64,000 nucleotides of DNA, from NCBI RefSeq assembly GCF_050920415.1, contig NZ_CP169309.1. One strand, given 5' to 3'. The position numbers and the translations under genes were made by a program. The notes under the pieces are model-generated. The model had not been told where the DNA came from. It worked only from the letters and a program-made list of their open reading frames with translations, and did no database searches. The stretch is from Escherichia coli. GTDB lineage: Bacteria > Pseudomonadota > Gammaproteobacteria > Enterobacterales > Enterobacteriaceae. The stretch's first letter is position 1. Each line of letters starts with the position of its first letter. This document shows, piece after piece, positions 46,417 to 51,954 of the stretch.

Positions 46417-49400
46417 TTAGAACGTTTTCTTGAAGTTCAGCATCACGCCTTTATCGCTGATACCATCCTCTTTCCAGTGGTAAGCATCCAGATTCAGCGA
46501 ACTTTCTTTGCTGCTGTACTTCACGCCGACGCTTGCCAGACTGTTGATGCCGCCGCCCTTTTGCCCATCATCGACATTAAAGTGCTGGCTGCCTGCGCCT
46601 GCCAGGCTTGCCGTGCGCTGGCTCTTGCTGTAGCTGAGGTTCGGCCCACCTTCCAGCGTGGCGTTCACACTCCAGCCGTCTTTCCCTGCGTAGTCCAGCT
46701 TCAGCCCGACGATGCTGTCCACCGCCGTTTCGCTGCCGCTGTTCATGCTCAGGTTAAAGTCTCCGGCATTGCGCTCCTGATAGTCGCCTTCCAGCGTGTG
46801 ACGCAGTTTCACACCCGCATATGGCGTGATTTTCAGCCCTTCGCGCGGTTCAAAGGTTTTCGCCCCTTCGCTGCGGAACTCCAGGTACTGTTGTTTCACA
46901 TTCGTGTCTGCCGTCTTACTGATGTCGCCGTAAGCCACCGAACGGCTGCTGTCCAGTTGGTGGATATCGTAACGCAGCGCGTTATTCCAGCTCATACCGT
47001 TGTCAAAGGACATCTGATGCTTCAGGCCAAAGAACTGGCTGTAGCCGCCTGTAACACCATTATCACCCGCTTTCTGCGCACCGTCGCCGTCCAGACGGGC
47101 GATACCGTACTCCAGGCTCATGGTCTGGTTTTCGCTCAGGTCGAGGGTTTTACGCAGCGCCAGCATGTCGTACTCGGTATTGTTACCCAGCTCAGCACGC
47201 GGATCGCCTTTCGCCACCACGTTAAATGCCAGAGCGTTGCCCATCTTCGGTGCTGCGTCCGCCAACATGCTGAAGCGGTTACTCAACACGCGCGCCTCAC
47301 GGAATACCGTGGTAGCCTGGCTCCCGCTGACTTGTTTTAGCGCGTTGTTCAGCTCTGCAGTGGTGCCGACGTTCAGACTGGTATACAGCTCGTTGTTGGT
47401 GTAACCCGCATCCAGCGCTTTTGCCACGTCATTCACTGAGGCATCCGTCGCCACATCGGTGTAGGCGTTTTTGCTCATGGTCACGTCAACGTTGCCGCTG
47501 GCGTCGGTACTGCCTGTCGCCTGCCAGACAACAGATGTCGAAGTGATCGCTTGCGCATCGGTCAGGTTGCTGCCTTGCACCACATCATCAAAGCTGACGG
47601 TTTTGTCCGCCGTTCCCGCCGCAAAAGCGGTGTTGATCTCCACGCCTTTCATACTGGCGTTATTGACCATCAGCTTACCGGCGCTACCGTCGGCGTTCGT
47701 CCCCACCACGTAACCATTGAGGTTGTTCATGCCATCGTTACGGCTAACGGAAGAAGAATGGCTGCCGTCGTATGGCGTAATGGTGGGTTCTTCCGGCGCG
47801 GTAAAGTCGACATAGTGTACTTCCGTACCGTCTCCCCCTTCGCCACTGCCCTCTATCGGCGTGCCAGATTGTTTAATCAATCCGGAACCATTCACGTTGT
47901 CGTCAATATAAACAGTGCCGTTGTTAACAATATGACCATTGCTCCCGAGCTTGCTGAAGGCGAAGGAGTTATTGGCGTAGATATTAATCGTACCGTTGTT
48001 TTCAACCACACCATCCGCTTTGGCGTCCGATGCTAATTGCATCCCAATCATGCCTGTTTGTGTCGTGCCTTCGCTGCCGACATTGATGGTGCCATTGTTA
48101 ACCATTTTTGCGCTGCCGTGCGCATTCATGGCGATGGTATTATTTTTATCAATATTGATAGTGCCATCGTTAATTGCCCGGCTACCGGCGTTATTATTTG
48201 ACGTCGTAACCTGGCCGTTAATCACACCTGTCGTACCGTTATACAATGTATGCCCATTACCGCCGGTAGCGATATCAGCATCCCCATTCACTGTACCCCA
48301 GTTGTTGAAATGCCCAGCCCAAAGTCCGTTATCAAGAAGATCGACAACACCACCGTCCAGGTTATTGAAGGTCGCGTTTTTATCAACCGAACCACTATGA
48401 ACCGTTCCTGCGTTATTGAATGTGGCTGCGGCAGAAAAATTCACTTTATTGACCGTTCCACCCGCTTCGTTATTCATCACGGCAGAAGCAGAGGCTCCCT
48501 TCCATGCTGTTACCGTCCCGGCGTTATAAAACGTACTGGCCCATTGTTCAACAGTGTTGATAGTGCCGGAGTTGTTGATAACAGAACCCGCAACGGTTGT
48601 ACCTACTTGCCCGGTCACTACACCTTCGTTAGTAAACACGCCGCCATCCACAGAAACGGTTTTTGTCGTGCCCTGGTTGGTGTATTCCCCACCCGTTGCA
48701 ATATCAACCTCGTTTATACTGCCCGTGGTTTCATTGACCAGATGACCAAAGTCAGCCACGGTGACAGCCCCTCCGGTTACGGTACCCGCGTTGGTTACCA
48801 GGGTTTCAGCGGTCGCTATCATATCAGTAGAACCACCGGATGAAGACAGGTTAAGCGTCTCCCCCTCGGCCGTAATGATATCGCCGTTTCTCCAGCTTAA
48901 TGAAACGAACCCATCAGTCGGGTTATAGGCGTTACTGTCCTGGCATATACCAAAAGTACAGATGGTTCCGTAATTAACGATAGTCCCGCTGCCATCGTTA
49001 TAGAATGCCTGCCCGTTTTCAGCATTGATATTGATGATGCCCGTCTGGTCATTAACTGCGGTACCGCCACTATAAACTGCCATACCAACGAGTTTATTCG
49101 CCCCCAGGCTGCCATCAAAGTTCTCATTCTTCTCGAGGTTGATGGTACCCTGATTAACCACCGTATTATCGGTACCGTATGCTGCCATCCCAGCACCTGC
49201 ATTATAGATAGTGATAGTACCTGACTGCTGGTTAAGCGCGGTAGCATTTTGCCTTGCGCCACCATAACTGTCCGTTCCTACCGCCATGCCGACACCATAA
49301 TTTTTTGCATTGCTGCTGCCGATATCGTTGCGTAAGGTGGTGGTATCGTTTTCATCTACCCAGATCGTATCCAGGGTAATCTGGCCTGCATTTGTTACAG

Positions 49401-51954: not shown

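Follow-up and report, generated by a model that had tools for sequence, protein, structure and literature searches.

A rare, intact and mosaic allele at the ydbA locus of Escherichia coli that very probably encodes a type Va autotransporter of the BigA/YdbA family

We found an uninterrupted reading frame in Escherichia coli that is, with high probability, an intact, rare and mosaic ydbA-locus allele whose product is a BigA/YdbA-family autotransporter of the classical type (Va). It lies on the minus strand of a 64,000-nucleotide stretch of DNA (the window), as do all features described below, and the source genome, E. coli MFDS1022581, is 100% identical to the window. The coding sequence (46417..51954), taken from the list of open reading frames and re-translated, is complete, with 1,845 codons and a stop codon. 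Re-translation revealed no internal stops and no frameshift, either of which had been named as refuting. The protein begins with MQKKTLLSACIA, ends with LNFKKTF and contains 12.4% Gly, 10.0% Asn, 9.8% Thr and 9.0% Ser, in agreement with the original prediction of a continuous frame encoding a Gly/Asn/Thr-rich protein. RefSeq calls an identical coding sequence, with the same start, in MFDS1022581 (WP_001355392.1), the family is represented in both Pfam and NCBIfam, and the gene call itself is ordinary. Intact ydbA genes are common and already published, being found in about 42% of phylogroup A (PMC4951805); the claim of intactness is thus correct but not new. The present analysis shows the frame to be intact, defines its domain architecture, places it in the family, and shows the allele to be rare, mosaic and under purifying selection.

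The gene order ydbL, ydbA, pdxI(ydbC) places the window allele in the ydbA slot, and the downstream order (pdxI-ydbD-ynbABCD-azoR-hrpA) is as in K-12. The upstream neighbour is ydbL rather than the paaY of K-12 because the paa/fea/tynA block is absent next to this ydbA, as is the K-12 upstream region; O157:H7 is arranged like the window. The K-12 ydbA pseudogene occupies the same slot and has the same domain layout and the same N-terminal module as the window allele, but it is split by IS2 and IS30, both of which we found inside the K-12 gene as had been claimed, whereas the window gene is uninterrupted. The window protein is also shorter, at 1,845 aa versus about 2,000-2,090 aa for the K-12 type. 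Only the last ~450 residues match the K-12-like full-length protein at 81-95% identity; most of residues 1-900 share 22-56% with it, and in DNA the nearest passenger segment is about 63-65% identical to K-12. A ydbA orthologue in the K-12 sense would be co-linear at the identity typical within the species, and this was not observed. The proposed identity as ydbA thus holds for the chromosomal slot and fails for the sequence of the K-12 gene minus its insertion elements. Judged by these comparisons, the window gene is a positional ydbA allele whose passenger has been largely replaced. In wider terms, ydbA is a hypervariable, recombining surface-protein locus with the passenger effectively replaced between lineages, so that most alleles will escape "ydbA" typing that relies on the K-12 sequence.

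Of 5,426 complete genomes, only 17 carry the window allele type. Four sister alleles share its genomic context and are uninterrupted; against them, dN/dS came to 0.15-0.27 for the gene overall and to 0.06-0.27 for the barrel. The window ydbA is a recombination mosaic under purifying selection, and the low dN/dS indicates that the gene is probably functional. Purifying selection on a rare allele lineage also makes it a sensible candidate for an E. coli adhesin that has yet to be characterised. We considered and rejected positive selection within the N-terminal module: the 9 nonsynonymous versus 1 synonymous changes gave p = 0.15-0.27, and they lie only in the tether.

The gene could instead be intact but cryptic, being silent (e.g., H-NS-repressed) or decaying and making no contribution under normal conditions, a reading we regard as unlikely. 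It is consistent with the broken state of ydbA in K-12 (IS elements) and in O157:H7 (two ORFs), with a frameshifted copy of the window allele type in another strain (P0001), and with the lack of a ydbA match, at megablast sensitivity, in about 43% of complete genomes, 3,096 genomes being ydbA-positive. It is also consistent with the 646-bp intergenic region between ydbL and ydbA (51955..52600, delimited by sequence reading), which is AT-rich (GC 36-41%) and in which a promoter scan gave no signal above chance. However, the dN/dS of 0.15-0.27 in passenger and barrel is unexpected for a gene free to decay, and the lineage shows hardly any variation in residues 1-90. The cryptic reading is weakened only in its sense of "no function", since conditional silencing is compatible with function under some conditions. 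The sequence AAGGA lies 7 nt 5' of the ydbA ATG, ydbL-ydbA spacing is identical in the four sister alleles, and blastn detected no similarity of the 646-bp region to the K-12 or O157 upstream regions. An Rfam search gave no match, and a terminator-like hairpin ~60 nt past the stop codon (46337..46358) is a consensus scan match only.

A Phe-terminal translocator barrel spans residues 1618-1845 (46420..47103), with a Pfam match to PF03797 over residues 1618-1816 (E 4.1e-19 to 4.6e-19; 69.7 bits against a cut-off of 26). The predicted barrel, whose absence had been named as refuting, is therefore present. It was seen only when the C-terminus was scanned alone; the whole-protein Pfam scan missed it because of a filter artefact. 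Escherichia alleles keep the ending ...NFKKTF, with Phe as the aromatic C-terminal residue that serves type Va autotransporters as an outer-membrane targeting signal, and some BigA-type members end in ...KKTFR. An AF2 model of the C-terminal 470 aa, built from only 10 sequences, reached a pLDDT of 48 and contained roughly 12 strands at low confidence, and was left out of the fold search and of strand counting. The BigA barrel has been grouped with the NalP barrel (Celik et al.); a profile of the C-terminus compared with solved structures gave no support for this assignment, as no relative was found at E<=1, the NalP barrel included. A single-sequence search against solved structures returned only chance-level matches to phage spikes. 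Ahead of the barrel, a helical junction or linker delimited by AF2 and family conservation (residues 1498-1617; 47104..47463) is strongly conserved in the family, with residues about 1505-1561 modelled as helices at a pLDDT below 50, and may be the pore-spanning linker. It is preceded by a BigA_beta sandwich (Pfam PF25783; residues 1414-1497; 47464..47715) that matched with E-values of 5e-25 to 3e-26 (88-92 bits against a cut-off of about 24) and was modelled as beta strands at pLDDT 59-85.

The passenger (residues 242-1413; 47716..51231) forms a right-handed beta-helix, about 1,150 aa long, with a rung period of about 24 residues; the beta-helix fold is established over residues 160-400. It contains a close pair of cysteines, Cys999 and Cys1004 (CTFGIC; 48943..48960), noted from the Cys positions; type V passengers tolerate cysteines paired at such short distances (PMC8151025). 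We scanned the passenger in eight overlapping chunks at E<=1 and found no match to the AIDA, PATR, pertactin or autochaperone Pfam models; the pertactin-like repeats for which a Pfam search had been proposed are thus absent from these chunks. As no adhesin-type passenger repeat is found by Pfam, the label "adhesin" derives from architecture alone. On the N-terminal side of the passenger is a BigA_N domain (Pfam PF25784; residues 161-241; 51232..51474), detected at E 4e-26 to 3e-27 (91-95 bits against a cut-off of about 24) and modelled by AF2 as an all-beta domain at pLDDT 84-91. A His/Asp/Asn patch and an acidic Pro/Asp-rich tether, recognised by family alignment and AF2, occupy residues 88-160 (51475..51693). 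The tether is predicted by AF2 to be disordered, and within the lineage it holds a 9-aa indel and most of the amino-acid changes. In relatives it consists of PPDDGG(D/N)xT units in variable number, whereas Tandem Repeats Finder detected no DNA tandem repeats in the window allele, unlike the relatives' PPDDGGxxT arrays.

The protein starts with a Sec-type signal peptide (residues 1-21; 51892..51954), assigned by sequence rules, that reads MQKKTLLSACIAIALSGQSWG and is followed by Ala. Its n-region contains KK, its hydrophobic core is 12 residues long, and the small residues S19 and G21 occupy positions -3 and -1. This pattern is kept across the aligned family members, in which the aligned position reads ...GWA/AD, ...TWA/TD or ...PAxA/AE (the slash marking the cleavage position), and we infer cleavage after residue 21. 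Two other readings of this end of the protein were rejected. The tetrapeptide LSAC (residues 7-10) might be taken for a lipobox, but the 9-residue leader is too short and the motif is unconserved (LSVC and IAIG in relatives). A downstream start at Met33 or Met38 would leave a single long signal peptide, but both Met residues are unconserved and MQ(K/R)K...SP is conserved. The signal peptide is followed by a probable disulfide loop, identified by family alignment, from Cys41 to Cys60 (CQSEGHARPSTKLKTVPEKC; 51775..51834). The two cysteines are invariant in the 16 aligned family members and are spaced by 19 positions in 15 of them, within a family motif CPxxIxxL[ST]xxExxxKLPxxC. The motif is degenerate in the window allele, where Q42 replaces a nearly invariant Pro. 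In the periplasm Cys41 and Cys60 would be expected to form a disulfide.

A second hydrophobic helix (H2), delimited by hydropathy and family alignment, lies at residues 67-87 (51694..51756). Its best 19-aa window (residues 68-86; Kyte-Doolittle mean 1.99) is the most hydrophobic in the protein, compared with a best value of 1.24 in the signal-peptide core. H2 is present in all 16 aligned family members (KD 1.5-2.0), with Gly at position 75 in every member, Ala at position 78 and Gly/Ala at position 84 each in 15/16, and G/A/S/T at positions 77, 81 and 82 in at least 94% of members. The flank that follows H2 in the protein is net acidic throughout (16/16). In the window allele, Trp71 and Gly74 are replaced by Leu. 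AF2 modelled H2 as a helix packed on no domain, at a pLDDT of about 30.

A second hydrophobic stretch had been pointed out in the original prediction and is real, with its core at residues 67-87, but the suggestion that it belongs to an extended signal peptide region did not hold, as a complete signal peptide precedes it. The known extension of this kind, ESPR, is a conserved 25-residue sequence ahead of the canonical signal sequence (PF13018; PMC8151025). The window allele resembles ESPR-bearing type V proteins in that its N-terminal end, here the first 88 residues, contains two hydrophobic segments, and either arrangement may influence export kinetics; in the window allele H2 has Lys residues ahead of it and acidic residues after it. 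One could therefore envisage a single long ESPR-type signal peptide (N1-H1-N2-H2-C) that is removed after H2, but we consider this highly improbable. The order is reversed relative to ESPR, as a canonical signal with conserved small residues at -3/-1 stands first and H2 follows ~45 residues later, and PF13018 gave no match at E<=10 in the window allele and five relatives; H2 is therefore not an extended signal peptide region. In addition, the conserved Cys pair between the two segments suggests a periplasmic disulfide, no conserved AxA-type cleavage site or polar c-region follows H2, and the positive N-flank is unconserved in the family. For this lack of conserved N-flank charge we also rejected the "positive-inside" case for reading H2 as a signal anchor.

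Signal peptide, Cys loop, H2 and tether together form an N-terminal module, which we define here as a family feature rather than taking it from the literature. It is recognisable in 16/16 members, down to 25-30% identity. An exhaustive search of 1.84 billion representative proteins found it in only 42 clusters, superseding a word-indexed homologue search with the N-terminal 250 aa that had yielded mostly fragments. The relatives looked up by name are all Enterobacteriaceae, and the BigA/YdbA family is restricted to this group. Pfam searches with the N-terminal modules of six members gave only sub-threshold noise (TrbK, YjbE, Trp_oprn_chp), and in the literature searched we found no description of H2 or of the module.

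Export of the remaining protein would be impossible if H2 stopped transfer. Standard predictors would probably call the window-allele H2 a membrane helix (KD 1.99). Its summed Hessa free energy is about +0.1 kcal/mol here and +0.4 to +4.2 kcal/mol in relatives, values that are marginal for membrane integration. One reading, which we judge rather improbable, is that H2 acts in biogenesis, pausing or transiently tethering the N-terminus at Sec/YidC or the inner membrane during barrel assembly and so preventing the long passenger from folding in the periplasm. H2 would then perform, by another device, the task that has been suggested for ESPR. Transient inner-membrane anchoring has been proposed for folding control in type V secretion (PMC8151025), and the marginal helix (Hessa about 0 to +4) is always followed by an acidic run that could be pulled through by the membrane potential. 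This role is, however, purely inferential, and after signal cleavage a laterally released H2 would be wrongly oriented for further export. Moreover, pausing alone explains neither the position-specific conservation of H2 nor the conserved Cys loop.

That conservation (G75, A78 and positions 77, 81, 82 and 84) exceeds the needs of generic hydrophobicity, and by analogy with VacA the distal tip may carry, in H2, a helix that is membrane-active or self-associating, in which case the protein would insert into membranes or form pores instead of being a passive adhesin. We hold this to be possible but doubtful. VacA is a type V passenger that needs an N-terminal hydrophobic GXXXG segment for channel formation (PMC4926140), H2 sits on a long flexible tether, and in BigA-type relatives it carries 5-8 small-xxx-small pairs, up to 4 GxxxG/A pairs and a Trp at its N-terminal edge. 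In the window allele, by contrast, it has no GxxxG, a single small-xxx-small pair and no Trp. Furthermore, the conservation of H2 gave no clear signal of helical-face periodicity, and we found no sequence similarity to VacA. A tentative wider reading, also less likely than not, is that the module as a whole (cleaved signal peptide, 20-residue disulfide loop, membrane-length, small-residue-rich helix and acidic Pro/Asp tether of variable length) is an undescribed functional device of classical autotransporters. Such a device could be read as a membrane-inserting or self-associating tip on a flexible leash about 20-25 nm from the cell, or else as an element that tethers the protein in the envelope or pauses its export, taking on ESPR's proposed job by other means.

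For the window protein as a type Va autotransporter, we propose the following sequence of events. The 21-residue signal peptide would direct passage through Sec and then be cleaved, and a small Cys41-Cys60 disulfide loop would form in the periplasm. The marginal H2 (67-87) would cross the inner membrane with no stop of transfer, probably helped by the acidic Pro/Asp tether. The PF03797 barrel would then be inserted into the outer membrane and the passenger (~1,150 aa, roughly 20-25 nm) threaded out C-terminus first, to remain as a surface-retained stalk. Its distal end would consist of BigA_N, the flexible acidic tether, H2 and the Cys loop, and would be the likely interaction end, of adhesin type. 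In this scheme we infer that H2 passes through Sec, that the passenger is retained at the surface and that the protein functions as an adhesin. An exported H2 that is family-wide and unstudied bears on how type V proteins escape stop-transfer at Sec, and on what the distal tips of long beta-helical adhesins contain, Salmonella BigA included.

Compared with known systems, the window allele lacks both the Pfam repeats and the ESPR of AIDA-I/Ag43-type SAATs, and its BigA_beta sandwich occupies the place usually held by the autochaperone in AIDA-I/Ag43-type autotransporters. From ESPR-bearing proteins it also differs in having the canonical signal first, a Cys loop between the two segments and no cleavage site after H2. 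NalP-type lipoprotein autotransporters are similar in concept, in that a type Va passenger bears a hydrophobic anchor at its N-terminus, but a lipobox is not found here. Helicobacter pylori VacA likewise has a membrane-length, small-residue-rich hydrophobic segment near the mature N-terminus and is still Sec-exported (PMC4926140). The VacA segment, however, is at the very N-terminus and has three tandem GXXXG motifs, whereas H2 comes after a ~45-residue Cys-loop region and, in the window allele, has none. A further comparison is with BigA of Salmonella and Enterobacter ("surface-exposed virulence protein", NF033178), for which we found no functional characterisation in the literature. The window protein scored 985.5 bits with NF033178 ("autotransporter adhesin BigA"), under the cut-off of 3,400, and is thus a relative of BigA rather than an equivalog. 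BigA shares BigA_N, BigA_beta and the PF03797 barrel with the window protein, and its passenger is 20-53% identical. It also shares the module of signal peptide, Cys loop, hydrophobic helix and Pro/Asp tether, with an H2 that is Gly/Ala-zipper-like in the BigA type (WGWVAGGVAAL...) and richer in Leu and Thr in the window allele.

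The ydbA locus of the window carries one open reading frame (46417..51954, minus strand), whose re-translation gave 1,845 amino acids and no internal stops, from MQKKTLLSACIA at the N-terminus to LNFKKTF at the C-terminus. The protein is rich in Gly (12.4%), Asn (10.0%), Thr (9.8%) and Ser (9.0%), and AAGGA lies 7 nt 5' of the ATG. E. coli MFDS1022581 (NZ_CP169399.1) is 100% identical across the gene, and RefSeq lists its CDS as an 'autotransporter domain-containing protein' (WP_001355392.1). Re-translation and RefSeq thus confirm the continuous frame and intact ydbA autotransporter of the original prediction. 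Its statement that IS elements break the gene in K-12 also holds: the annotation of a K-12 derivative has two pseudogene pieces 5' of pdxI, split by IS2 and IS30 transposase genes, with paaX-paaY upstream. The claim of an intact ydbA is correct but not novel, the gene being an already annotated member of a catalogued family; the remaining interest lies in a rare, selected ydbA allele and an undescribed N-terminal module.

The gene is flanked by ydbH-ynbE-ydbL on one side and by pdxI(ydbC)-ydbD-ynbABCD-azoR-hrpA on the other. The paa/fea/tynA block, which in K-12 lies between ydbL and ydbA, is missing, and the upstream neighbour is ydbL, as in O157:H7, where ydbA is broken into two ORFs. The AT-rich, 646-bp upstream intergenic region (51955-52600) showed no blastn similarity to the K-12 and O157 regions upstream of ydbA, and a promoter scan of it gave matches at chance level only. 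Goldstone et al. 2016 described the ydbA region as heterogeneous, with ydbA 'an autotransporter pseudogene in MG1655' and full-length in ~42% of phylogroup A (PMC4951805). Among 5,426 complete E. coli genomes, 3,096 have a match to the window gene, just 17 cover 80% or more of it, and full-length cover at 94.8% identity or more was limited to four; most matching genomes have only the last 24% of the gene in common, at ~86%. When the protein is compared with a K-12-like full-length protein, identity is 22-56% across most of residues 1-900 and reaches 81-95% in the last ~450; from residue ~900 on, an E. albertii protein comes closest among the representatives (70-100%). Reading the allele as K-12 ydbA minus its IS elements is an oversimplification. 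At the DNA level, the nearest passenger segment matches K-12 at 63-65%, the barrel at 84-86%, pdxI at 91-95% and ydbD at ~97%, and the ynbE-ydbL side is just ~79% identical to O157:H7. Divergence forms a gradient with the ydbA passenger at its centre, and the hypervariable zone spills into the flanking 'core' genes (42900-54800).

Four sister alleles share the context and the ydbL-ydbA spacing of the window gene, each as one intact CDS; two are 98.7% and 94.8% identical to it, and the last two ~90-93% across the ~82% of the gene that aligns. We compared the window allele with these four by the Nei-Gojobori method and obtained dN/dS values of 0.15-0.27 for the whole gene, 0.14-0.30 for the passenger and 0.06-0.27 for the barrel. 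These values indicate purifying selection on the entire protein. In addition, dS ranges from 0 up to 0.8-0.9 between adjoining segments of one gene pair, a jump that attests directly to mosaic recombination.

Broken copies of this rare allele also occur, as the homologues P0001 and P0003 show. In another E. coli, a version 97-99% identical to it (P0001) is frameshifted at ~residue 127, and in a further contig a near-start frameshift joins an upstream 91-aa frame (51758..52033) to the gene. Two other homologues, P0030 and P0034, each join a YdbA N-terminus to other sequence, in one case after the tether described below. What follows the tether is presumably a lambda-J-like tail-fibre protein, and we take the C-terminus of the other to be MscS-like. 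These fusions represent either further disruption of the locus (prophage insertion, rearrangement) or chimeric assemblies. Intact ydbA versions of 2,624 and 2,838 aa occur in B2/APEC and wastewater strains. RefSeq names two such autotransporters at the ydbA locus, WP_282503906.1 (2,838 aa; L004 1-8312, NZ_CP124349.1) and WP_161476172.1 (2,624 aa; L005 302-8176, NZ_LR740776.1), 'EntS/YbdA MFS transporter', as it does several further hits; the label almost certainly reflects confusion of ydbA with ybdA in the annotation pipeline.

A whole-protein Pfam scan placed BigA_N at residues 161-241 (E 4e-26) and BigA_beta at residues 1414-1497 (E 5e-25). The autotransporter beta-domain (PF03797) was not reported by hmmscan of the full 1,845 aa even at E<=0.1, but this absence is a filter artefact: the C-terminal 345-360 aa alone (46420-47454 for 345 aa) match it at residues 1618-1816 (E 4e-19, ~70 bits, cut-off 26). 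HMMER filters can conceal genuine domains in long, compositionally biased autotransporters. The beta-domain expected in the original prediction is present; pertactin, AIDA, PATR and autochaperone Pfam models matched none of eight passenger chunks. The NCBIfam model 'autotransporter adhesin BigA' reached 985 bits, below its cut-off of 3,400, so the protein is a BigA relative and no equivalog. AF2 modelling with a 16-sequence family alignment gave an all-beta domain leading into regular three-strand rungs at residues 160-400 (pLDDT 81-97), and residues 246-560 have a periodicity of ~24 residues (z = 6). The C-terminal AF2 model is too poor (pLDDT 48) to confirm strand number or pore helix, and the C-terminal family profile found no relative among solved structures. 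Taken together, these results make the protein a classical (type Va) autotransporter belonging to the BigA/YdbA family. Celik et al. 2012 described the BigA passenger as AIDA-I-like and grouped its barrel with NalP; neither was reproduced by our Pfam or PDB sequence searches. In the literature searched, BigA and YdbA appear only as bioinformatic candidates or pseudogenes, never both in one paper, and we found no description of their N-terminal module.

Residues 1-250 were searched exhaustively against 1.84 billion representative proteins, which yielded only 42 clusters, the named relatives looked up coming from E. coli, E. albertii, Salmonella (BigA) and Enterobacter. The module layout is common to all 16 aligned members, at identities down to 25-30%. 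It opens with a signal peptide that has small residues at -3/-1; two invariant Cys come next, spaced by 19 positions in 15 members (CPxxIxxL[ST]xxExxxKLPxxC), and then a Trp in 13. Besides Cys10, which lies in the signal peptide, the window protein has only this pair (C41/C60) and Cys999/Cys1004 (CTFGIC, 48943-48960), both closely spaced, a pattern reportedly tolerated in type V passengers. Next comes the second hydrophobic stretch of the original prediction, H2, which is real: its core spans residues 67-87, and its hydropathy (KD 1.99 over 68-86) exceeds that of the signal-peptide core and every other 19-residue window. Across the family H2 is a small-residue-rich hydrophobic helix of ~20 residues, with G75 invariant, A78 in 15/16, Gly/Ala at 84 in 15/16, almost always G/A/S/T at 77, 81 and 82, and aliphatic residues at 79, 83 and 85 throughout. 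An Asn/Asp/His patch and a strongly acidic Pro/Asp tether follow, the latter made of PPDDGGxxT units in varying copy number. Lengths in an E. albertii cluster (P0010, P0051-P0064; 1796, 1823, 1832, 1877, 1895, 1904 and 1913 aa) are spaced by multiples of 9 aa, which fits copy-number variation of a PPDDGGNVT unit; at the DNA level this would be a 27-nt in-frame VNTR. Within the window lineage, residues 1-90 are invariant save T80A, and the amino-acid changes and one 9-aa indel (residues ~131-139) fall in the tether. The window allele is an outlier in detail, with Q42 for Pro, Leu for Trp71 and Gly74, and no GxxxG. AF2 gave pLDDT ~30 for residues 1-150, so H2 is not packed on folded domains.

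The suggestion that H2 marks an extended signal peptide region did not stand. The ESPR is a conserved 25-residue extension preceding a canonical signal sequence (PMC8151025), whereas here the canonical signal comes first, the conserved Cys pair intervenes before H2, and no conserved signal-peptidase site follows H2. At E<=10, Pfam searches with the module of six members found no family, ESPR (PF13018) included. A permanent stop-transfer anchor would be topologically incompatible with export of the 1,750 residues still to follow once the signal peptide is cleaved. The summed Hessa scale for H2 (+0.1 kcal/mol in the window allele, +0.4 to +4.2 in relatives) is marginal for integration and all 16 members have a net acidic flank downstream of H2, both of which fit H2 being pushed through Sec. 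Three roles are left for H2. It may tether the protein transiently or pause it during export, the function proposed for the ESPR (PMC8151025); it may act as a membrane-active or self-associating tip, for which the N-terminal GXXXG region of VacA provides a type V precedent (PMC4926140); or it may be a permanent envelope anchor for the N-terminus. We rank the putative tip level with or slightly above the tethering or pausing role, and both well above an envelope anchor.
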